A stretch of DNA of 64,000 nucleotides from a virus. Taxonomy: Duplodnaviria > Caudoviricetes. The notes beneath the pieces were generated by a model, which saw only the letters and a program-made list of their open reading frames with translations, had not been told where the DNA came from and did not search any database. The stretch is from IMG/VR virus record IMGVR_UViG_3300005459_000006, positions 4,721 to 68,720 of that record, one strand, 5' to 3'. Below, in pieces: positions 3,336-54,401 of this stretch. Each line of letters starts with the position of its first letter. Positions within the stretch are counted from its first letter, which is position 1. The position numbers and the translations under genes are program-made.

Positions 3336-3400
3336 GCATAGGAGTCGGGCGTGAGCAGCGCCCGACTCAACTTTTATCTGGACTATGTACGAATTTGGAT

Positions 3401-3443: not shown

Positions 3444-3824
3444 ATGAATGAAGCGTTTGTGAAGGCAAACCTCACGACGTATCTGCGAGCTAACTTATTG
3501 CGCGCAGTCATTCTTAGACACGAAGATCGTTCAACATATGGCATACCAGATCTTAGCGTCACGATGTGTGGATCCACATCGTGGTGGGAGGTCAAGTTTG
3601 CCAATCCTGATTGCAGATCGCGAGGCGCTCAGGATCTTACAATGCGACGTCTCGGAAATGTGGGAAAGGCGTACTACCTTATTTTCGAGATCGATAAAAC
3701 AAAGGAGAAACGAATGCACATAGTCACTCCCAATGACTATGTGAAGTGGGAACAGTCCGGGGATATGATGATTGGCTTTGACCACGCTTGGGTCACGGAC
3801 TTCATCAAGGCGGTTCACAAATGA
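3444..3824 (+). CDS. VRR-NUC (PD-(D/E)xK) nuclease
   Basis: YGIPDL...WWEVK...Q motif; start reassigned to ATG 3444, downstream of the promoter. Confidence 0.8.
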   Translation: MNEAFVKANLTTYLRANLLRAVILRHEDRSTYGIPDLSVTMCGSTSWWEVKFANPDCRSRGAQDLTMRRLGNVGKAYYLIFEIDKTKEKRMHIVTPNDYVKWEQSGDMMIGFDHAWVTDFIKAVHK

Positions 3825-4027
3825 TTATGTCAGATCGCGACGTCTTTGCAGGTGCCCATGTCACGCCGGAGGTGAAAGATGCACTCCGGCAACTATCGCT
3901 GAAGCAGAACAAGTCCATGTCGGCTTTGATCTACGAAGCCATCAAAGATAAACTGGCGAAGGAAGGTGTCGAGGTAACTCGTGCATCTTCCAACGAAGAA
4001 GACGTTCCGCTGCCGTTCGTGCATTAA
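3821..4027 (+). CDS. ribbon-helix-helix (CopG/Arc-like) DNA-binding protein
   Basis: beta strand VFAGAHV followed by PEVKDALRQLS and SMSALIYEAI helices. Confidence 0.65.
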   Translation: MIMSDRDVFAGAHVTPEVKDALRQLSLKQNKSMSALIYEAIKDKLAKEGVEVTRASSNEEDVPLPFVH

Positions 4028-4642
4028 ATGCCCGGCCCGGCGACCCAGACGCTCATCCGGACGTATTCCGGGCTTGAGCTAGACGTGTGCCGTCTCGAGC
4101 CTGACTTAATCCGCATTGAAGACATAGCTCACGCTCTCGCCCTTTGTAATCGTTTCGCTGGTCACACCAAGCGACCGATTTCTGTCGCGCAGCACTCCGT
4201 CTATGCTGCGCGAATTGTTGCTGAGCTTCTTGCTAGAGGCCCAGACTCTGCCGTTAATCATCATAGTATTATTCGTCAGGCTCTTCTACATGACGCCGCA
4301 GAAGCGTATGTCGGTGACGTCACTAAGTGGCTGAAGCAGACCAAGATCTTCGAGAATTATCGTATTCTTGAAGATATCATACAAGCCAAGATCTACAGAA
4401 AGTTCGGCTGCCCTGTTGACCAACACGAATTCGTTAGCTACGCAGACCGCATCCTAGTCCTATTCGAGGGAAGGAAAGGGTTCGGTCCTGGATTTGTCAT
4501 TGACCATCCTGACTATCCCAATCTCAGCCAATCAGAAATCGATCTAATCGGGCCGTGGTCTCCGTGGTCCTGGAAGTCAGCCGAAGAACTCTTCCTTGTT
4601 CACTATCGAATGTATGCTGAGGTGATGGGTGCTGGAACTTAA
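4028..4642 (+). CDS. HD-domain phosphohydrolase (YfbR/5'-deoxynucleotidase-like)
   Basis: EDIAHALALCNRFAGH, SVAQHS, LLHDAAEAYVGD, YADRI. Confidence 0.9.
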   Translation: MPGPATQTLIRTYSGLELDVCRLEPDLIRIEDIAHALALCNRFAGHTKRPISVAQHSVYAARIVAELLARGPDSAVNHHSIIRQALLHDAAEAYVGDVTKWLKQTKIFENYRILEDIIQAKIYRKFGCPVDQHEFVSYADRILVLFEGRKGFGPGFVIDHPDYPNLSQSEIDLIGPWSPWSWKSAEELFLVHYRMYAEVMGAGT

Positions 4643-5492
4643 ATACGCCACCGGCTTCTTCGAGACAGCTCGTGAACGCTACAATATCAAGCTGAAGCGT
4701 GAAGCCGGTGAGCCACCTCCATGGACTACTGACAAGCAATTCCGTCAGTGGCGGTTCTGTCACGTTCACAGAGAGCACGACAAGACAACTCGGTGGTTCC
4801 GTGAGACTGTCCGTAAGCATCTGGACGAGCTCGCAGCCACTCGTGCGACCGTGGCCTTTCGATGGTTCAACCGAATCGAGACCGGGGAGCTCATTGTAGA
4901 TCTGCTGGTTGACAAGTGGGATTCCCAAGAAGCTGAACGCCGTCTCCGAGGAGTTGCTCCGATAGTCACCGGCGCCTACATCATCAAAGGCTATGATGGA
5001 TACCCAAAACTAGAGGGTGTCCTCAAGTGCATCGATGAGGCTTTTCCACGACTTCCTCCGATGGTTGAAAAGTGGAAGGCCAAACCCTCCCTCGAAGCCG
5101 CGTGGCGGGATCTCACGACCCTGAACTATCTGGGCGGTTTCATGGCCTATGAGATCGTCTCTGATCTGCGCTGGACACCGTTCTTATCAGTCGCGCCCGA
5201 TATACTCACATGGGCGAACGCTGGTCCCGGCTGTGCTCGAGGACTCAGCTGGACTGTGGATGGGCATGTCGGTCGCTTTGGCACTGGTCCCAGCGATCAG
5301 AGAACCATGCTCAGCCTGATGCGTGAGATTCTCGCCATGAGCCGGGACGAACAGTACTGGCCGCAGAAATGGCACACGTGGGAAATGAGGGAGGTAGAGC
5401 ACTGGATGTGCGAGTGGGACAAGTATTGTCGCGCTCGCAGCGGTGAGTCGATGAAACGAAAGTTCGTAGCTCCTCGGACAGCGTATGCTTGA
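4629..5492 (+). CDS. 5-hmdU DNA kinase family (formerly alpha-glutamyl/putrescinylthymine pyrophosphorylase clade 1)
   Basis: WTTDKQFRQWRFCHVHREHDKTT, FRWFN, GGFMAYEIVSDL, NAGPGCARGL, EVEHWMCEWDKY; lies next to a dUMP-modifying TS homolog. Confidence 0.8.
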   Translation: MLELKYATGFFETARERYNIKLKREAGEPPPWTTDKQFRQWRFCHVHREHDKTTRWFRETVRKHLDELAATRATVAFRWFNRIETGELIVDLLVDKWDSQEAERRLRGVAPIVTGAYIIKGYDGYPKLEGVLKCIDEAFPRLPPMVEKWKAKPSLEAAWRDLTTLNYLGGFMAYEIVSDLRWTPFLSVAPDILTWANAGPGCARGLSWTVDGHVGRFGTGPSDQRTMLSLMREILAMSRDEQYWPQKWHTWEMREVEHWMCEWDKYCRARSGESMKRKFVAPRTAYA

Positions 5493-6225
5493 TACGGTTA
5501 TCTGCATTCCGTCCCGTCGCAAGCCTCCGCTGAAGAGCTTGATGAGCTACCAGACTGCTCCATTCGAGGTGATTATCGTCGCAGACCCTGAGTTCGTAGG
5601 CATACACGAGCAGTTCTATCATGCTATCCGTAATATTACCGTAGTCGAGGGAGGTCGTGGAAACGGTCCTCAGTGTGCGGCGTGCTATCGTGCCGCAGCG
5701 AAGGCTGGATTCCCCTATTTCTTCAAGATGGATGACGACCTCTTACCGAAGACCTTTGTTGGGATGGACGGCTTTATCGATTTACCCATCGCAATTCGTG
5801 TCGCTCGTGAATGCTTAGATGTCACCAAGACCACTCATGCGGGCTTCTGCAATACCTCCCGAAGAGATTGGCTCGGTGATGGCTACGCCAGAACTTGGGG
5901 GCTAATCCATGGCGGAGGAAACATCGGAATCAGCGCCGAAGACCCCTCGCGTTTCATCGACGAACGACTTGTACGAGCGGAAGATGTATATCGAACATGC
6001 GCTCACCGCGAACTCGACGGTGCCGTCGGACGGGTCAAGTTTATCGGATTTGATAAGAAAGGGTCTGCTGATACCTCTGCGGATTCTAGCTCCAGAACGA
6101 TACGACAAGAAGACTTTGATCGAACCCGCGACATCGTCCTCCAACGGTTCTCCCGATACGTCAGTTGTGAAGGAACCAGAAAAGTCAACGGAATAGATAT
6201 ACCGAACTGGAAGATGAAGCGATAG
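5485..6225 (+). CDS. GT-A fold glycosyltransferase (TET-associated/JGT-like), copy 1
   Basis: ICIPSR N-terminal strand, KMDDDL metal motif, RAEDVY catalytic region. Confidence 0.7.
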   Translation: MLDTVICIPSRRKPPLKSLMSYQTAPFEVIIVADPEFVGIHEQFYHAIRNITVVEGGRGNGPQCAACYRAAAKAGFPYFFKMDDDLLPKTFVGMDGFIDLPIAIRVARECLDVTKTTHAGFCNTSRRDWLGDGYARTWGLIHGGGNIGISAEDPSRFIDERLVRAEDVYRTCAHRELDGAVGRVKFIGFDKKGSADTSADSSSRTIRQEDFDRTRDIVLQRFSRYVSCEGTRKVNGIDIPNWKMKR

Positions 6226-6236
6226 AGGTTATCATA

Positions 6237-7085
6237 ATGGATCTAACTGTGTTCATCCCAACTCGGGGACGCAGTTCAATGGAACATATCACGATCAATG
6301 AGATGAAGAAGTTTTCATCTCGCAAGCCCATCGTGGTTTGTCCATCCAAAGAAGCCTTCCACTACAAGAACTACGCCAATTCCGAGGTGATGGAATGCCC
6401 GCACGACGGGATTGGCCCGACTCGTCAGTTCATTCTGGAGAACAGTCCAACCCGCGGTGTCGTCATGCTCGACGACGACATGTATTTTTCCTACCGACCC
6501 ATCCCTACGCTTGGAGGAGCGGGCTGCTTGGAGCGAGTTACTGATATCGATCCAATGTTCCAATGGATTAGTGACCAGCTTGACTCGGGCTTCATGCACG
6601 GCGGTATTTCAGCACGACAGGGCAATCAGAACATCGAGCTTCAATCCGCCGATTGCATTCGGGTCAACAATGCTCACTTCTTCGATGCACAGGTCTATCG
6701 TAATCTCGGTCTCCGATTCGATGTCCTCCCCGTCATGGAAGATTTCTACGTTACGCTTTCACTTCTCTGTATGGGTTATCCAAATCGCGTGGCATACCAC
6801 TATTGTTGGAGTCAACGAGGCAGTGGTGCAAAGGGTGGATGCTCACTGTATCGAACTGCAGACCTCCAAGCGACCGCAGCCGAGCAGCTCCGTACTCTCT
6901 TTCCATCATACGTCAAAGTGGTCGAAAAAGAAAGTGACTCGCAGGTTGGCGTCATGGCGAAAAGAAAAGATGTCAACATCGCGTGGCTCGAGGCATGGAA
7001 GCGCGAGGGAATCCCTAACCACATCAAACTGACAGCATCCGACAACGGCTACAAGCCGGGGACTCCAGACTTGAGGAGACGATGA
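6237..7085 (+). CDS. GT-A fold glycosyltransferase (TET-associated/JGT-like), copy 2
   Basis: VFIPTRGR, GIGPTRQFIL, MLDDDM, MEDFYVTLSLL..G, GGCSLYR. Confidence 0.8.
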   Translation: MDLTVFIPTRGRSSMEHITINEMKKFSSRKPIVVCPSKEAFHYKNYANSEVMECPHDGIGPTRQFILENSPTRGVVMLDDDMYFSYRPIPTLGGAGCLERVTDIDPMFQWISDQLDSGFMHGGISARQGNQNIELQSADCIRVNNAHFFDAQVYRNLGLRFDVLPVMEDFYVTLSLLCMGYPNRVAYHYCWSQRGSGAKGGCSLYRTADLQATAAEQLRTLFPSYVKVVEKESDSQVGVMAKRKDVNIAWLEAWKREGIPNHIKLTASDNGYKPGTPDLRRR

Positions 7086-8182
7086 AAGTTCTTGAGGTTA
7101 GGAACGTCCACGAAGCTCTTCCTCGAGCCTTGCGCTTACTGCGACAGGAAGCTGTGTATCGCGAGAGTCGCAATGGACCGGTCTACGTGACGCCCTATCC
7201 AGTCACTACGGTCTACAACAGGCCATCCGAGCGAGTCATGCTCTGGCCTCAGCGGGATGCCAACCCCTTCTTCCACCTCTATGAATCGTTGTGGATGCTG
7301 GCAGGCCGCAACGATGTCGCTTCGCTCATCAAGTATGCGAAGCAGATGGCACAGTATTCGGACGACGGTAAGATCTTGCACGGTGCTTACGGGAAGCGAT
7401 GGCGCGATTGGTTCTCCCTTGGCTCTTCGAGGGACCAACTCCAAGTCATCGCCGAGCGCTTGACCAAAGATCCCAATGATCGTCGCTGTGTCCTACAGAT
7501 GTGGGACTCGGAGAAAGATCTTGGGAAGCCGTTCAAGGATGTGCCATGTAATACCATCACCACCTTCCAGAGAAATCTGGATGGGTCCTTGGACCTGACA
7601 ATCTTCTGCCGTTCCAATGACATCATCTGGGGTGCCTACGGAGCGAACGCAGTCCATTTCTCGATGCTCCTCGAATACATGGCAAATTGGATTGAATGTC
7701 CAGTGGGCCGTATGTATCAAGTGAGTACGAACTGGCACGCATACGCTGATATCTTGAAGGGCGTCATCAGTCTTGCCGAGATGATGGAATACAGTGGTTT
7801 CATCCATCAGCCATATCAAGAGGGATCTAAAGTTGATGTGACTGATTCCAGTACGATTGGCAAGAAGTACATCGAGACACCACGACTTCGGGTCTATCCC
7901 ATTCAAGGCACGATCAAAGAGGTGGACCGCAACATCGAGCTGATTTTGAAAGCTGCCGATGCGGATGGGATGGATGAAGCACTTCATTTCCGATATCGTT
8001 ATGCTGTTAACTGGTATGTGATGCTCCAAGCACATCAGGCATACCGCCAACGATCATCGGATGGAAGTCATTATCGTAAGGCGCTGGAATGCTTGGAGAC
8101 GGGCGACCAAGATTGTGACTGGATCGTCGCTGGCCAGGAATGGATGTCACGGCGGCTCAGCGCACATCTTGCCAAGGCATGA
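7082..8182 (+). CDS. thymidylate synthase family protein, probably dUMP hydroxymethylase
   Basis: NPFFHLYESLWMLAG, GAYGKRW, RRCVLQMWD, catalytic PCN, RSNDIIWGAYGAN (Asn at the dUMP-specificity position). Confidence 0.85.
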   Translation: MKVLEVRNVHEALPRALRLLRQEAVYRESRNGPVYVTPYPVTTVYNRPSERVMLWPQRDANPFFHLYESLWMLAGRNDVASLIKYAKQMAQYSDDGKILHGAYGKRWRDWFSLGSSRDQLQVIAERLTKDPNDRRCVLQMWDSEKDLGKPFKDVPCNTITTFQRNLDGSLDLTIFCRSNDIIWGAYGANAVHFSMLLEYMANWIECPVGRMYQVSTNWHAYADILKGVISLAEMMEYSGFIHQPYQEGSKVDVTDSSTIGKKYIETPRLRVYPIQGTIKEVDRNIELILKAADADGMDEALHFRYRYAVNWYVMLQAHQAYRQRSSDGSHYRKALECLETGDQDCDWIVAGQEWMSRRLSAHLAKA

Positions 8183-8715
8183 AGATAAGCTCGAAGAGAG
8201 AGTTCTTCGAGAAGTGGAAACAAGGACTTCTCGGTAACGCGACGCGTCTATGGTGGGATCCAAATGAGGCATGGGCTTCAGACGCCAAAGAGTTCGGTTT
8301 CCGTGAACATCGTGCTGGCGGAGGGACATGGGAGCGTGTACCACGCGACAGTTTTTGGGAGACTGTCACGATATGGCGAATCGCGGGGCGCACTTTCACT
8401 ATGGACGACGTCTGTCCAGACGAGCATCAAACCATCCAGGGTGAAATTTGTAGAACTTTCCGTGGCCTCGAAGGATATATTGGAGCAAGTCATCTTCCTA
8501 TGCGAAAGGCGATGGCCGCGGGAATCCTTAGGCATCGTAGCTCTCTCGAGACCCTTGTGCTTATTAATGAATTCATGGACCCATCATCTCGAGATGATGT
8601 TGACGCCTTCTTCGAACTTTTCCCTGACGCTACCATTGAGTTTACCTGTTTCTCGGTCAACGTTGGGAACATCCCGAACCGCAACACACTCTTCTGGGAA
8701 GTGAGGAACTATTAA
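8179..8715 (+). CDS. hypothetical protein translationally coupled to the TS homolog
   Basis: ATGA overlap with the upstream stop; 178 aa ending FWEVRNY. Confidence 0.7.
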   Translation: MKISSKREFFEKWKQGLLGNATRLWWDPNEAWASDAKEFGFREHRAGGGTWERVPRDSFWETVTIWRIAGRTFTMDDVCPDEHQTIQGEICRTFRGLEGYIGASHLPMRKAMAAGILRHRSSLETLVLINEFMDPSSRDDVDAFFELFPDATIEFTCFSVNVGNIPNRNTLFWEVRNY

Positions 8716-37358: not shown

Positions 37359-37774
37359 TGCCGTTCATGGAAGATGTTGCATTTCTGCTAGTCGCCAATG
37401 GATTTGGCACTGTAGGAACAAATATTTTCTATTCTACTCGTGCAAAGATTCCGGTTGGAAACGGGCCATATGTTAGTCTAATCGAGACAGGAGGGTTAGC
37501 GCCAGAGAAAACACAGAATCGCAAAACCAAACCGGCTTATCAGAGACCTGGACTCCAGGTTATCGTCCGTGCGACAGATTATATTGTTGCACGAAACCGT
37601 GCAGTTGAAGTCTATAACACAATTTCAGCTGTAAGAAATCAATTTGTAGGCAATGCGCCAGGAACATGGTATTTGAATATGGCCCCTCAACAGGAGCCAT
37701 TTGATGGTGGCAGTGATGAGCAGGGCCGACCGAAGGTTCTATTCAATATCATTGCCTACAAGAGAGCAGCATGA
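37358..37774 (+). CDS. tail terminator/minor capsid-like protein
   Basis: QRPGLQVIVRA, DEQGR..VLFN; synteny. Confidence 0.75.
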   Translation: MPFMEDVAFLLVANGFGTVGTNIFYSTRAKIPVGNGPYVSLIETGGLAPEKTQNRKTKPAYQRPGLQVIVRATDYIVARNRAVEVYNTISAVRNQFVGNAPGTWYLNMAPQQEPFDGGSDEQGRPKVLFNIIAYKRAA

Positions 37775-38964
37775 AAAAACTTTTGTGGATCGGTGACGCA
37801 GCCTGTGATAGTGGCTTCTCCAATGTCACTCACAGTGTCCTTTCCTTTCTGCACAACTCGTGGGACGTCAGTGTTCTTGGCGTCAATTATCGCGGCGATC
37901 CGCACAACTATCCGTATCGCATTTATCCAGCCTTTGTGGTTGGATGTCGCAATTTTCTTGGAACCTCTCGGGTAAAGGACGTCCTCGAGGCCGAGAAGCC
38001 AGACGTGGTCGTTCTTCAGACGGATCCATGGAATGTGCCAACCTACGATGCTTTGATTGGATGTGGAATTCCAGTCATTGGTATTATTCCGGTCGATGGT
38101 CGGAACTGCGCTGGTGATCAGCTCAACACCTTGGATCGAGTCATCTTCTGGACGCACTTCGGCAGGAATGAAGCGATCAAGGGTGGCCTGAAAAAGCCGT
38201 CAACGGTCATTCCGCTCGGCGTCGATACAACGATTTTCGTTCCTGGCTTTCAACAAGCGGCTCGACAATTTCTTGGTCTGCCACAAGAGATGGTCGATGG
38301 CTTTATCGTTGGCTGTGTCAATCGCAACCAACCTCGCAAGCGATTCGATCTTTTGATCCGCTATTTCTGCATGTGGGTCAAGAGCCACAACATCGAGAAC
38401 GCGTATCTGTTTCTCCACATCGGACCAACTGGTGAGAACGGATACGATTGCGTCCGCTTGATGAAATATTACGGCATCGAGCGACGTCTATTCCTGGCCT
38501 TACCCGAGGTCTGGAAAGGCGTACCGATACCAGAGCTCGTTGCCACATATCAGGCTTTCGATGTTCAAATGACCACCACTCAGGGTGAAGGGTGGGGTCT
38601 GACGACGATGGAAGGGATGGCCTGTGGCATTCCACAGATTGTTCCTGACTGGGCTGCTCTTGGGGAATGGACCGAAGACGCAGCCTGGAAGATCAGCTGC
38701 CCAACCACTATCGCCACTCCTGGTCACGCAAATCCGATTGGCGGCATTGCGGATCAGTATCGCTGTATTTCTGCTTTGGATCGGCTCTATCGTCTTCAAG
38801 ATCTACGACAGGAGTATGGGGCACGAGGCCTTGCTCTTGTCAATCAAGAACGGTTCCGTTGGTGGAAGATCGCGTCACAAATCGAAGCCGAGCTAGCGAT
38901 TGCTTACTCCTCGGAGGACTCACACCTGCCTGATTTGCAGGTCGTAGGAGGGACAGATGCCTAG
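37771..38964 (+). CDS. GT-B (GT4-like) glycosyltransferase
   Basis: SGFSNVT, GCVNRNQPRKRFD, TTQGEGWGLTTMEGMACGIPQIVPD. Confidence 0.9.
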   Translation: MKKLLWIGDAACDSGFSNVTHSVLSFLHNSWDVSVLGVNYRGDPHNYPYRIYPAFVVGCRNFLGTSRVKDVLEAEKPDVVVLQTDPWNVPTYDALIGCGIPVIGIIPVDGRNCAGDQLNTLDRVIFWTHFGRNEAIKGGLKKPSTVIPLGVDTTIFVPGFQQAARQFLGLPQEMVDGFIVGCVNRNQPRKRFDLLIRYFCMWVKSHNIENAYLFLHIGPTGENGYDCVRLMKYYGIERRLFLALPEVWKGVPIPELVATYQAFDVQMTTTQGEGWGLTTMEGMACGIPQIVPDWAALGEWTEDAAWKISCPTTIATPGHANPIGGIADQYRCISALDRLYRLQDLRQEYGARGLALVNQERFRWWKIASQIEAELAIAYSSEDSHLPDLQVVGGTDA

Positions 38965-50510: not shown

Positions 50511-51179
50511 ATGCAAGATCCCACACAGGGAACGAATACACCCCTGTACTTTTTCCTGGGAACGCTTGTCACAAACATCGCCGCCCTGATAACATTGTGG
50601 CTACGCGATCGCTCCGCCGTCCGCAGAGAAGAACGACGTCGGCAATATGAACTTGAGGACAGGGCCAGACTTGTCCGTGAAGTTCAAGAAAAAACTGATA
50701 AGGTGATACAGCCAATGGCAGCACAAATCAGTCAGGCAGCCGAAGACCGCGCCCGTCTTACGGAGCTCCTCGAAAGAAACAACCGCTTGACTGAAGAAAC
50801 GGCCAACAACGTGAAGCGGCAGAATCAGCCACGTGATAAAAGTGCTCGAGAAAGGGCAACCGATAAGATCCCTCCTTCGGAAGGTGATCAGCGACGAGTG
50901 ACGAGGCGTGCGGCTGACTCACACATCGTTGCCACCTCCAAGCTCGCTGATGCTACTACTCAAGCGGCAGCAGCGACCGAGAATCTCGCAAATACTATCG
51001 AGGAAACCGCTGAGGAACAAGCCGCGACAGCACGAGAAATCGCAATGGCAACCGCCAAGGTCGCCATACAAGCCGCTGAGCAAACGGAAAAAATTGCTGA
51101 CGGCACGGAAAAGGCCGTCCAGCGGTTGGATGAAATCGCTGGCACGGTAAAGAAGATGGAACAAAAGAAAAATGATTGA
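50511..51179 (+). CDS. membrane-anchored coiled-coil protein, holin-like by position
   Basis: one N-terminal TM helix; immediately upstream of the endolysin. Confidence 0.55.
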   Translation: MQDPTQGTNTPLYFFLGTLVTNIAALITLWLRDRSAVRREERRRQYELEDRARLVREVQEKTDKVIQPMAAQISQAAEDRARLTELLERNNRLTEETANNVKRQNQPRDKSARERATDKIPPSEGDQRRVTRRAADSHIVATSKLADATTQAAAATENLANTIEETAEEQAATAREIAMATAKVAIQAAEQTEKIADGTEKAVQRLDEIAGTVKKMEQKKND

Positions 51180-51702
51180 ACGACCGCTCATTCAAATCAT
51201 CTCATCCATCGCAGAGAGCTACGAACTAGATCCCCAGCTAGTTCTTGGCTTGGTGGATGTAGAATCCAGTGGGGATCGCTGGGCCTGGAATCCAGAGCCA
51301 CGCTATCGGTATTTCTGGAACGTCCGGGCCAATCTTCCCTTCCGCTCGGTCTCAGCCGCGGAGATCGCGACGGAGATCCCTCCCTCGGATTTCCCGTCGC
51401 TCGCTGGTGATAGGGATCAGGAGTGGTGGGCTCAGCAGGCGTCGTGGGGCTTGATGCAGATCATGGGCGCCACGGCTCGAGAGAACGGATTCAGCGGACG
51501 ATACCTCACTCAGCTATGCGAGATAGATCTCAATCTGCGGATTGGATGTACCATCCTGAAGAACTTGAAAGGATGGGCAAAGGGTGACATGGCCCGCATG
51601 CTCGCGGCCTACAATGGCGGACGTCGTGGCAATATTGTTCCGCCGTATCGCAATGTCGCTTACGCTACGAAGGTGATCAATCGGTCGATTCGCTATGCCT
51701 AG
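51172..51702 (+). CDS. lytic transglycosylase (SLT-like) endolysin
   Basis: VESSG, SWGLMQIM, NLRIG, LAAYNGG. Confidence 0.9.
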   Translation: MIERPLIQIISSIAESYELDPQLVLGLVDVESSGDRWAWNPEPRYRYFWNVRANLPFRSVSAAEIATEIPPSDFPSLAGDRDQEWWAQQASWGLMQIMGATARENGFSGRYLTQLCEIDLNLRIGCTILKNLKGWAKGDMARMLAAYNGGRRGNIVPPYRNVAYATKVINRSIRYA

Positions 51703-52282
51703 CAAATCACAATTAGATGCATATGAAACATCGCTCCGTGATGCAGAACTCAGCACGGATTGCTTTACCGAGCTCCTCGCACTCCTCCCCAACAGGCCCA
51801 AGACTTTCTTGGATATCGGTTGCGGGTGTGGGCATCTTCCTGTTGTTGCTGCTTCCATGCGTATTGATTCGATGGGCATCGATCTATGCCTACCACTGGC
51901 TGATGAGACCAAGATATTCGATGGAATCACCGCCAGACTGGTTCGAGCAGATCTCACTTCTGCCCTTTCCGTTGAGCCTGCCGATCTTGTTGTTTGTTGG
52001 GAAGTAGCGGAGCATCTGCCTGAATCTGCGGCTGATGATTTCTGCAAACTCTTGGTTCGTTCTACCGGTGAGTTTCTGGCTTTCACGGCGGCTGTTCCTG
52101 GCCAAGGAGGAATGGGCCATCTCAATGAACAGCCGAAACATTACTGGAGAGAAAAGCTGTTGGCTTCCGAGGAACTCTCCTATTTTCCTCACCTGACCAA
52201 ACAGGTGTCAGAGCGATTCTTACACGTTGCGCCACGAGCTCCGTGGTACGGCAATAACCTCCAAATCTTCAGGCGAATCTAA
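51695..52282 (+). CDS. class I SAM-dependent methyltransferase
   Basis: FLDIGCGCG, DLVVCWEVAEHL, PGQGGMGHLNEQ. Confidence 0.9.
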   Translation: MPSKSQLDAYETSLRDAELSTDCFTELLALLPNRPKTFLDIGCGCGHLPVVAASMRIDSMGIDLCLPLADETKIFDGITARLVRADLTSALSVEPADLVVCWEVAEHLPESAADDFCKLLVRSTGEFLAFTAAVPGQGGMGHLNEQPKHYWREKLLASEELSYFPHLTKQVSERFLHVAPRAPWYGNNLQIFRRI

Positions 52283-53031
52283 TGCGCGACATCGCATTAA
52301 CGATGATCACAATTGATCGTTCTCCGGGGACGAACTACCTCTACGATACATTGCGAAACTTACGTCGTGGTGGCGTCTGGGATGCTGAACGTTTCCACTC
52401 TCTTCATCTATGCAATTCTACTATTGAGTCACGATGGGCCAGACAGCAGTCCTACACTTTCGCTCTTAGTTTCCATCGGCCAAACAAGGATCTGCTACCG
52501 AGTTTGAATGTGGCAGCGGCTCTGCGAGCAGGTCATTCCACTAGCTGTAAGTGGATAGTCTTTCTCGAAGATGATATCGATGTCTGTGATTTCTTCATAG
52601 AATCTGTCAGTAAATGGCTGGATCTGCATCAGGCAGATCACTTCCGTGTCTACTCGTTCGGAGCCAACTACGATGCAGTGAAAATTACTGCTGCATCGGG
52701 TGGAACCTATTGGCAGTATCCAGTCACCGCTTTCTACGGAACTCAGTGCTTTGCCATTCGCCGGGACGATGCTCTCAGCTTGTCGCACTATCTTGAAGCC
52801 AATCCGCTCTATAAAGGGACATCAGCTGGAGCGTATGATCTAATCCTGCAAGAGTGGTCCAAGTACGAATATCCACAGCTGAAGAATTTCCTCGCCTCTG
52901 CACCTTCATTTGTTCAGCATATTGGTCGGCACAGTATCATCAATCCACGTCAGGATGTCCATTCATTTCCGTCGTGGCCCGGAAGGAATTGGACATTCAC
53001 CGGTCACAAGTCCGCGATGAACCGAACTTAG
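52282..53031 (+). CDS. GT-A fold glycosyltransferase
   Basis: VFLEDDI, YGTQCFAI, SFVQHIG. Confidence 0.75.
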   Translation: MRDIALTMITIDRSPGTNYLYDTLRNLRRGGVWDAERFHSLHLCNSTIESRWARQQSYTFALSFHRPNKDLLPSLNVAAALRAGHSTSCKWIVFLEDDIDVCDFFIESVSKWLDLHQADHFRVYSFGANYDAVKITAASGGTYWQYPVTAFYGTQCFAIRRDDALSLSHYLEANPLYKGTSAGAYDLILQEWSKYEYPQLKNFLASAPSFVQHIGRHSIINPRQDVHSFPSWPGRNWTFTGHKSAMNRT

Positions 53032-53042
53032 AAGGAGACCAC

Positions 53043-54401
53043 ATGAAGTTACTAATTGGAATGCTATTCTTTCTTGCCCTCGCACCATTTGGGCAGGATG
53101 TAACCAAGGCCATCAAACTCCTCGAAGAGGCCCTCGAGGCGCTGAAACCTCCGCCGACTCCAGTCGAGATTTCAACACCAGAAGCATTTGATCAAGCAAT
53201 TGCCGCTGGAAATCCAGTCATCTCTCTGACAACTTCGTTTGTTTACACCAAGTCTCTGACCTTGACAAAGCCTGTGACGATCCAGAGCAAGGTGCCAGAG
53301 GGACGGATGAAGCCGGATACTCCGCTGCCAAAGTTTACTGGCTCCATTCGAGTGGAAGCAAACGATGTCATTCTGCAGGGTATCGAGGTCACGAACGTCG
53401 GCAGTACCGCGGACATCTTGCTTCTCCTCGGAGCAAGGAATACCGTCGATCGTATTCGGGTTCGAGGGAACGATACTACCGGCTCTAAGCGATGCATCGC
53501 CGCCAACACGGAGGGCGCCGGGAAGATTGTTCAATCGCATATTTCGAATTGCTTCCTCCCATCGCCTGGAGCTGATTCGCAGGCAATCGGTGGGTGGAGC
53601 ATGCGTCCGGGTCTACTGATCGAAGACAACTATCTCGAGGGCGGCTCAGAGACCATCCTGTTCGGCGGAGCGGATAGTGCCATCGATCGTACACCAACCG
53701 ACATCACGATCCGTGGCAACACGATCACCAAGAACCCCGCGTGGTTCGGCCAGCCTATCGGCGTGAAGAACCTCGTCGAATTCAAGAATGCCAAGAATGT
53801 CCTCTTTGAGAACAACGATTGTTCCTATAGCTGGGTTCAGGGACAGGTCGGCTACCTGCTCGTATTGACCATACGAAACCAGGACGGCCGAGCTCCGTGG
53901 GCGACGCTTCAGGACTTGGTGTTTCGAGGGAACACTTGGCGGGATGGAGTCGGTGCCGTCAACATCCTTGGCCGGGATGATATCAAGGAATCAATTGTTG
54001 GTCGGCCAGTTCCGATAGGCACCGTTCGAGAAAGCATCCCGATGGCGCGGGTCAGCATCCAGAACGACACGTTCCTCCTGGACCCTGTGAAATACAATGG
54101 TGGAACGAACACCAAATCGATTATGATTAGCGGAGGTCCATCTGATCTGACGATCACCAACGTCACGATCAAGAGCGCATCCAAAGTTGGATCGTCGATG
54201 TATCTGTCTTCTTCTCCCTCGAATGCGCCGGTCACGAATTTTACGTTCACGACGAATACAGTTCCAGTCTCGACCTATGGACTGTTCGGCGCTGGCACGA
54301 CTGCAACGCCGACGAACTGGACATCGACGAATCCATCCTGGATTAGATGGACTCGTGATAGCACGATCTCAGGCGTTACCGTCGTACCGCTGACTCCCTA
54401 G
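53043..54401 (+). CDS. right-handed beta-helix (pectin-lyase-like) protein with signal-like N-terminus
   Basis: LLIEDNYLEGGSETILFGG, ITIRGNTITK, VLFENN; AAGGAG RBS. Confidence 0.75.
   Translation: MKLLIGMLFFLALAPFGQDVTKAIKLLEEALEALKPPPTPVEISTPEAFDQAIAAGNPVISLTTSFVYTKSLTLTKPVTIQSKVPEGRMKPDTPLPKFTGSIRVEANDVILQGIEVTNVGSTADILLLLGARNTVDRIRVRGNDTTGSKRCIAANTEGAGKIVQSHISNCFLPSPGADSQAIGGWSMRPGLLIEDNYLEGGSETILFGGADSAIDRTPTDITIRGNTITKNPAWFGQPIGVKNLVEFKNAKNVLFENNDCSYSWVQGQVGYLLVLTIRNQDGRAPWATLQDLVFRGNTWRDGVGAVNILGRDDIKESIVGRPVPIGTVRESIPMARVSIQNDTFLLDPVKYNGGTNTKSIMISGGPSDLTITNVTIKSASKVGSSMYLSSSPSNAPVTNFTFTTNTVPVSTYGLFGAGTTATPTNWTSTNPSWIRWTRDSTISGVTVVPLTP

Follow-up and report, generated by a model that had tools for sequence, protein, structure and literature searches.

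Modified bases are known from bacterial viruses in two well-described forms. Sugar-decorated cytosines are familiar from T-even phages, from RB69 and from TET-linked gene clusters, and thymines decorated with amino acids or polyamines are known from M6, ViI, PhiW-14 and SP10. In the literature that could be searched here, the only chemical demonstration of sugar-decorated hydroxymethyluracil concerns base J of kinetoplastids, and no report of a glycosylated 5-hydroxymethyldeoxyuridine (5-hmdU) nucleoside from a bacterial virus was found. Published work has mined contigs carrying thymidylate synthase (TS)-associated glycosyltransferases (GTs) of the GT-A fold, has recorded ‘solitary’ homologues of phage DNA glycosyltransferases (the TAGT type) among 753 phage genomes, in 288 of them, and has predicted glycosylated 5-hydroxymethyluracil (5-hmU) downstream of phage T-dioxygenases. 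Here, we analyse a six-gene operon of an uncultured soil phage, contained in a stretch of 64,000 nucleotides (hereafter the window) that corresponds to bases 4721–68720 of a 68,720-bp IMG/VR virus contig (IMGVR_UViG_3300005459_000006). The operon is best read, at a probability slightly better than even (approx. 0.55), as a kinase-free cassette in which 5-hmdU would be made before replication and then O-glycosylated in DNA, yielding a base-J-like mono- or disaccharide.

The operon encodes, in order, an HD-domain phosphohydrolase, a PF18723 protein, two glycosyltransferases (GT1 and GT2), a TS homologue and a small ATP-grasp-like protein. Its six open reading frames (ORFs), all on the + strand, sit between a family-A DNA polymerase gene (480–2375) and the genes for a DEDDh exonuclease, an SNF2 helicase and a primase. 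Consecutive ORFs overlap by 14, 8, 4 and 4 nt, the single gap being 11 nt long, so that the coupled operon described in the original prediction is real, and it lies at the positions given there. Consensus scans revealed no convincing internal promoter or terminator, and the sole strong hairpin (3342–3368) lies upstream of the operon. The same arrangement is found in sister contigs sharing 70–80% identity with the window.

In the pathway that we propose, the TS homologue would, as its homology suggests, convert dUMP to 5-hmdUMP, the HD phosphohydrolase would tilt the nucleotide pool against dTTP, and the phage family-A polymerase encoded upstream would incorporate 5-hmdU into DNA. GT2, judging from its family and context, would then draw on a host nucleoside diphosphate (NDP)-sugar to glycosylate 5-hmdU in DNA at its 5-hydroxymethyl oxygen, which would produce a base-J-like nucleotide. 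More tentatively, GT1 might add a further sugar to form a disaccharide, or else glycosylate a second subset of sites or serve a second anomer. The PF18723 protein would flip 5-hmdU and act upon it.

The two glycosyltransferases carry much of this argument. GT2 (6237–7085) matches PF20691, the Pfam family of TAGT enzymes (E = 1.6e-9; 38.4 bits versus a cut-off of 27.5), as well as phrog_842 (1.2e-32), and is 29% identical to gp22 of the cultured phage PhiJL001. At least 216 clusters of GT2 homologues were recovered, all but one of them belonging to PF20691. Its motifs IPTRGR, LDDDMYF and MEDFYVT make up an R...DDD...EDF site, and in the family alignment the motif Arg, D79–D81 and D169 are invariant, with E168 kept in at least 90% of the sequences. 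GT1 (5485–6225) has no match in Pfam or PHROGs, and tblastn detected none in cultured phages. Across its 46 homologue clusters R12 and D83–D84–D85 are invariant; the corresponding motifs read IPSRRKP, MDDDLLP and AEDVYRT, D167 being invariant and the Glu of the ED pair falling outside the invariant list. A confident AlphaFold2 (AF2) model (pLDDT 93) retrieved the GT-A enzymes SpsA, RmlT and TarS from the PDB with Foldseek, and resembled phage TAGT proteins (template-modelling (TM) score 0.6–0.72) more closely than cellular enzymes of the GT2 family (TM 0.45–0.55). When the GT1 and GT2 families were compared with hhalign (96.5%, E = 7.6e-10, 202 columns), the Arg, DDD and ED motifs were aligned with one another.

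On its modelled fold and this profile match, GT1 is a new and divergent TAGT-like GT-A family outside Pfam and PHROGs. By their motifs, both enzymes are of the TAGT type with an R...DDD...ED(Y/F) site, a motif that has been described for phage GT-A enzymes together with a structural relationship to the base-J glucosyltransferase of trypanosomes (Pyle et al., bioRxiv 10.1101/2023.12.21.572611). The two GT-A genes announced in the original prediction are consequently borne out, GT2 by PF20691 and GT1 by its fold, its invariant DDD and its profile match.

The same fold and site are found in the beta-glucosyl-HMC-alpha-glucosyltransferase of T2/T6 and in phage TET-associated GT-A enzymes, and in T2/T6 two glycosyltransferases build a disaccharide, as may be the case for the window. 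However, those enzymes act on 5-hydroxymethylcytosine (5-hmC) or its glucoside, whereas 5-hmU is the base expected in the window, given its dUMP-type TS homologue. Moreover, TET-linked systems create the hydroxymethyl group with TET/5mYOX enzymes, whereas in the window it would be installed before replication and with a PF18723 partner. Base J corresponds to the predicted type of product, in which a structurally related GT-A enzyme joins a sugar by an O-link to the 5-hydroxymethyluracil of DNA. Kinetoplastids nevertheless rely on the thymidine hydroxylases JBP1/2 together with JGT, and no JBP/TET protein was detected by Pfam scans, which covered the ORFs on either side of the virion-structural block (window approx. 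24–51 kb) and, within it, only a GT4-type gene described below. In the window, by contrast with base J, 5-hmU would derive from the nucleotide pool and could replace T throughout the genome, two glycosyltransferases are present, and the role would be phage counter-defence rather than transcription control.

The supply of 5-hmdU can be read from two genes. The TS homologue (7082–8182) matches PF00303 (6.2e-21) and phrog_5131 (6.5e-109), and tblastn showed it to be 42–43% identical to PaMx11 gp51 (42%) and PhiJL001 gp24, PaMx11 being a phage whose DNA has 5-hmdU-derived bases (PMC8989533). It possesses the Cys nucleophile (VPCN) and, at the position equivalent to N177 of the E. coli enzyme, the Asn (GAN) that marks dUMP-specific enzymes, as had been noticed from the sequence beforehand; neither residue varies in any of 65 relatives. 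We infer that it is a dUMP hydroxymethylase making 5-hmdUMP. The HD protein (4028–4642), correctly recognized as a hydrolase at the outset, matches PF13023 (4.1e-6), YfbR-like proteins (7e-6) and phrog_318, ‘deoxyribonucleoside 5' monophosphate phosphatase’ (4.7e-40). It is a probable (deoxy)nucleotidase with an influence on the supply of pyrimidine dNTPs, putatively as a dTMP/dNMP phosphatase.

The second gene of the operon (4629–5492) had been taken for a 5-hmdU DNA kinase-family protein, and this assignment did not survive. The protein matches PF18723 only (4.3e-35; 121.9 bits versus a cut-off of 25; positions 6–278 of 281), a family whose current Pfam name is ‘5-hmdU DNA kinase, helical domain’ (‘HMUDK_hel’, formerly aGPT-Pplase clade 1). 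Phosphorylation of 5-hmdU in DNA is performed by a separate P-loop protein, namely M6 gp54, PaMx11 gp49 or ViI gp67/gp243 (Lee et al. 2021, PMC8989533). A search of the window protein for a Walker A motif found none, and the protein is not homologous to the P-loop kinase PaMx11 gp49/M6 gp54; its homologues are instead PaMx11 gp50 and PhiJL001 gp19 (45% identity to both) and M6 gp55. Among PaMx11 proteins, Pfam assigns gp49 to AAA_33 and PF18748, and the clade-2 transferase gp46 to PF18724. Judged by homology, the PF18723 protein is a helix-hairpin-helix paralogue (clade 1) of the amino acid:DNA transferase, not a kinase.

This paralogue looks like an enzyme rather than a passive helical domain. 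Its C-terminal Cys-Glu-x-x-Lys motif (WMCEWDKY in the window) has Cys, Glu and Lys invariant in 65 of 65 PF18723 relatives, and in alignment the Cys of the window motif VEHWMCEWDKY lines up with Cys247 of PaMx11 gp46, the catalytic residue of that transferase (PMC11472151). The amino acid:DNA transferase uses a Cys-Glu dyad to attack C6 of the flipped base. Since PF18723 keeps a dyad of this type, we read it as a base-flipping enzyme acting on 5-hmdU DNA, and it probably flips 5-hmdU and acts on it whatever decoration module the phage carries. A sister phage on a 39-kb contig (L008; JGI 3300072490) encodes the HD protein, a 246-aa FkbM-like protein (with a faint match to Methyltransf_21), PF18723, the TS homologue and the ATP-grasp-like ORF, whereas GT, kinase and transferase are all missing from the surrounding 8 kb. 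A module may thus contain PF18723 with TS alone.

The kinase itself was sought throughout the contig. PaMx11 gp49 gave no tblastn match, and a Walker-A scan returned a UvrD helicase as the sole match in a real gene. Hidden Markov models (HMMs) were built from sister-phage proteins and run with the --max option on all six frames of the whole contig; the best E-value was 1.5 for the kinase lineage and 2.1 for the clade-2 transferase (PF18724, ADDT), for which PaMx11 gp46 likewise gave no tblastn match. The Pfam scans, within the scope given above, contained no PF18724, pyridoxal phosphate (PLP), radical S-adenosylmethionine (SAM) or TET/JBP (PF12851) protein. A profile search of the contig for PF18748, PF18724 and PF18757 also found none, but is weak, as it missed the TAGT gene that hmmscan detects.

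These results partly confirm what had been observed in the operon and partly support its interpretation. As far as these searches reach, the clade-2 transferase is absent from the whole contig, and PLP, radical SAM and TET/JBP enzymes from the scanned ORFs, just as had been stated; however, since the gene present is a clade-1 paralogue of the transferase, the claim that there is no transferase is true for clade 2 only. The HMM searches secured the HD, TS and GT2 families and uncovered no hidden clade-2 gene, while leaving the supposed kinase with PF18723 only and GT1 with neither a Pfam nor a PHROG match. The premise taken from M6, ViI, PhiW-14 and SP10, that 5-hmdU is phosphorylated by the kinase family of these phages, does not carry over to the window, as the P-loop enzyme in question is absent. 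With no enzyme to make a DNA-linked pyrophosphate, the proposals that this group might serve as the glycosyl donor, or that sugars might be attached through a phosphate, have lost their basis. A glycosylated thymidine, base-J-like or bearing a disaccharide, remains the best reading, and now has comparative backing from the TAGT type of both glycosyltransferases and from the gene neighbourhoods of GT2 relatives described below.

Compared with M6/YuA, PaMx11, ViI, PhiW-14 and SP10, the window has in common the pre-replicative synthesis of 5-hmdU by a TS-family enzyme, a PF18723 protein alongside and an HD gene nearby; its TS homologue and PF18723 protein are 42–45% identical to those of PaMx11, and M6/YuA-type pathways also decorate 5-hmdU in DNA after replication, as is predicted here. 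However, those phages need a P-loop kinase, a PF18724 transferase and PLP, radical SAM or FAD tailoring enzymes (PMC5889632; PMC8989533). None of the three was found in the window, which has two glycosyltransferases in their place. The window therefore shares the TS homologue of the M6/ViI type and lacks two of the features that define this pathway, the P-loop kinase and the clade-2 transferase.

The arrangement is less singular than had been supposed, being found in the cultured phages PhiJL001 and LuckyBarnes and in many metagenomic phages. Related loci were annotated with our own HMMs, the GT2 set comprising 80 IMG/VR loci whose GT2 relatives are 32–57% identical to that of the window. PF18723 adjoins the glycosyltransferase in 65 of them, a TS homologue is present in 70, and in 49 the TS homologue has an HD gene for company. 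In none of the 80 was a kinase, a transferase or GT1 detected, relaxed thresholds included, and a small Walker-A ORF lies between PF18723 and the glycosyltransferase in just one of the 65 PF18723-bearing loci. Moreover, the GT2 relative is the sole TAGT-type enzyme found in most of these loci, and there it would have to add the first sugar; GT2 itself is, by its family and gene context, a probable first-sugar 5-hmdU DNA glycosyltransferase.

Variants with duplicated components recur. In four loci (L040, L046, L051 and L057) the TAGT gene is immediately followed by another TAGT-like ORF with a weaker match, and in one more (L037, 8234–9996) two tandem PF18723 paralogues precede the TAGT gene. 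Nine of the 80 TAGT loci lack both PF18723 and TS; among them, L030–L033 share a 204-aa Walker-A ORF approximately 2.5 kb downstream of the glycosyltransferase, which may represent a different DNA-modification setting.

The cultured examples provide the closest comparison. PhiJL001, a phage of Alphaproteobacteria for which the complete genome is available, encodes PF18723 (gp19), a TAGT enzyme (gp22), the TS homologue (gp24) and the HD protein (gp25), and its whole genome contains no P-loop kinase or PF18724 transferase. In the Brevibacterium phage LuckyBarnes, gp38–gp41 are arranged in the order TS–GT–GT–PF18723, and no P-loop kinase or PF18724 protein was detected in the 14.8-kb region that was examined. 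The LuckyBarnes TS homologue (gp41; L103, 4604–6157) is unusually long, at 517 aa, and may have an extra domain. Both phages resemble the window in their PF18723, TAGT, dUMP-type TS and HD families and in the missing kinase and transferase, and LuckyBarnes, like the window, has two adjacent TAGT-type glycosyltransferases. However, the second glycosyltransferase of the window is not a TAGT duplicate but belongs to a separate family that is usually tied to transferase and kinase cassettes. PhiJL001 has an Nmad5 protein between its glycosyltransferase and TS genes, which the window does not, the window adds the ATP-grasp-like ORF, and identities are only 29–45%. On gene content, the window cassette is a member of an uncharacterised and widespread kinase-free module, with PhiJL001 and LuckyBarnes as its closest cultured examples.

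GT1 relatives have a different setting. They usually lie directly after a PF18724-like transferase, in cassettes ordered transferase–GT1–HD–kinase(s)–PF18723–TS (L010 and L012–L017) with one or two P-loop kinases; in L006 the TS gene leads and the HD gene stands apart. L006 and L007 additionally encode an NAD-dependent sugar epimerase and a GFO/IDH/MocA oxidoreductase. The content of GT1-type cassettes predicts phages that would add sugars to an amino-acid-type adduct of thymidine, or would produce two different forms of modified T. With GT2 typical of the kinase-free module and GT1 of kinase/transferase cassettes, the window is a hybrid of the two. A quick maximum-likelihood tree of PF18723, with SH-aLRT values as its only support, places the window protein within a clade (SH-aLRT 99) of kinase-type members from its own lineage and two TAGT-type members, and the module label switches at least three times over the tree. 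From this mixing of kinase-type and TAGT-type proteins, decoration modules appear to have been swapped around a retained PF18723–TS core.

Several points weigh against a pathway of simple O-glycosylation. The characterised TAGT member, from T2/T6, adds the second glucose to glucosyl-hmC and not the first (PMC13216743). The habitual position of GT1 genes behind a PF18724-like transferase indicates that the usual acceptor of this family may be an appended group rather than a sugar. Genes for NDP-sugar synthesis are lacking, which prevents the sugar from being named. For this phage as for all others bearing the module, the glycosylation chemistry is a prediction from genes. CheckV estimates the contig to be 85% complete, and a gene could accordingly sit off the contig; on the other side, independent assemblies of this phage from many samples agree in gene order and reach up to 69,141 bp versus 68,720 bp here, and the contig is probably near complete. 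Finally, the catalytic-looking dyad kept in PF18723 means that another chemical step may precede or replace the glycosylation.

This last point leads to the alternative that survives best, although we consider it unlikely. The Cys-Glu pair of PF18723 would form an exocyclic C5-methylene from 5-hmdU or glycosyl-5-hmdU with no phosphate activation, after which another nucleophile would be added or the base reduced to T, the glycosyltransferases serving to decorate the base or to provide a leaving group. The final base would then be something other than a simple O-glycoside of 5-hmdU. The conservation of the Cys, Glu and Lys and their correspondence with the PaMx11 transferase, described above, are in line with such chemistry, and the retention of PF18723 in kinase-type and TAGT-type modules alike points to a real function on a shared intermediate. 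In addition, the clade-1 paralogue M6 gp55 is dispensable for amino-acid transfer in vitro (PMC8989533), which leaves room for another role. However, neither hydroxide nor a sugar alkoxide leaves as readily as phosphate, clade 1 has no demonstrated activity, and TAGT enzymes are known for O-glycosylating hydroxymethyl-pyrimidine DNA or the sugar that it bears. Within the O-glycosylation pathway that we prefer, the most specific version, in which two TAGT-like enzymes would place a disaccharide on 5-hmU without phosphate activation and PF18723 would represent a kinase-independent class of 5-hmdU-flipping enzymes with Cys-C6 chemistry, is offered tentatively.

It is very doubtful that the glycosyltransferases have non-DNA targets (for example virion proteins, glycans of the host envelope or some small molecule) and that the DNA contains plain 5-hmdU or T. 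GT-A enzymes are indeed very diverse, and the phage has other glycosylation genes whose targets are probably not DNA, namely a GT4-type GT-B gene and a methyltransferase gene near that of a beta-helix protein. However, GT1 and GT2 both lie between PF18723 and the TS homologue, within a replication and nucleotide module, the adjacency of the glycosyltransferase to PF18723 and TS recurs in 65–70 of 80 loci from diverse phages, and the GT1 model is nearer to phage TAGT proteins than to cellular enzymes.

Of these other genes, the GT4-type GT-B gene (37771–38964, +) lies inside the virion tail-gene block and matches Glyco_trans_1_4 (4.7e-7), Glycos_transf_1 and Glyco_transf_4; its product, which stands apart from the DNA module, probably glycosylates virion or surface components. 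The methyltransferase gene belongs to a block of four coupled genes by the lysis region (51172–54401, +), which encodes an SLT-type transglycosylase (51172–51702), the SAM-dependent methyltransferase (51695–52282), a 249-aa ORF without Pfam match (52282–53031) and the beta-helix protein (52854–54401). The 249-aa ORF does not match the TAGT-like HMMs.

The last ORF of the operon (8179–8715) had been listed as an unknown ORF starting at 8140. It is real and coupled to the operon, but most likely starts at the Met at 8179, as in all homologues and sister-contig gene calls, giving a protein of 178 aa. No Pfam match was obtained even at E ≤ 1, a PDB-sequence profile search and the ESM Atlas gave nothing relevant, and tblastn detected no match in cultured phages. 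In the AF2 model (pLDDT 91.7), the listed Foldseek PDB matches were all ATP-grasp proteins (best E = 4.9e-4, TM approx. 0.5), and the top VIA-align matches were nearly all ATP-grasp enzymes, with middling scores (synapsin, Z 8.6 over 152 residues; RimK, SCS-beta, PPDK and ITPK1, Z 6–8). K6, E89, D134, E154, E174 and R176 are invariant. According to the model, the protein has an ATP-grasp-like fold.

In four sampled sister phages, this ORF follows closely behind TS regardless of the module, and two of the four also have kinase and transferase. The family, which numbers 1,442 representatives at 50% identity, co-occurs with P-loop kinase and transferase in L009, L010, L012 and L013 and is not found in 76 of the 80 TAGT-type loci; two distant members that were checked lie in unrelated contexts with no TS gene nearby. 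Nothing links the ORF to a sugar pathway, and its fold and distribution suggest that it is probably an ATP-using accessory of the phage lineage, possibly acting on nucleotides. Five family members (P0329, P0332, P0333, P0381 and P0401) carry N-terminal extensions of 170–370 aa. The only assignment among the fusion partners is one borderline match to DUF4406 (22.5 bits versus a cut-off of 22), which we take to be nucleoside 2-deoxyribosyltransferase-like.

The ATP-grasp-like ORF was rejected as a substitute kinase, given its co-occurrence with P-loop kinases in sister phages and the unrelated contexts of its distant members. The scheme in which it would replace the kinase, 5-hmdU being (pyro)phosphorylated and a GT-A enzyme using the DNA-linked phosphate or the sugar being joined via a phosphate, is hardly credible: the ORF is translationally coupled to the operon and the ATP-grasp superfamily does include kinases (e.g. 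ITPK1 and rifampin phosphotransferase), but the contig has no P-loop 5-hmdU kinase, the family is found together with bona fide kinases and transferase and is missing from most TAGT-type loci, and GT-A enzymes are not known to take a polymer-bound phosphate as donor.

Taken with the widespread module, the operon predicts sugar-decorated 5-hmU in bacterial viruses, by a route that would skip the kinase step. Should this be true, a disaccharide-bearing 5-hmU would be a thymine replacement undescribed in any virus, and clade 1 would gain its first function. As PF18723 works here without kinase or transferase, the module offers a clean way into the function of the clade-1 paralogues, and its presence in the cultured PhiJL001 and LuckyBarnes makes the prediction directly testable. 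Such bases bear on the evasion of restriction and CRISPR, on the host range of therapeutic phages and on tools for 5-hmU labelling.

Directly upstream of the operon, a gene for a small ribbon-helix-helix protein (Antitox_RHH, 1.3e-7; window 3788–4027, +) ends exactly at the start of the HD gene. Gene callers use a shorter form of 68 aa on sister contigs, and the protein could act as a regulator of the module.

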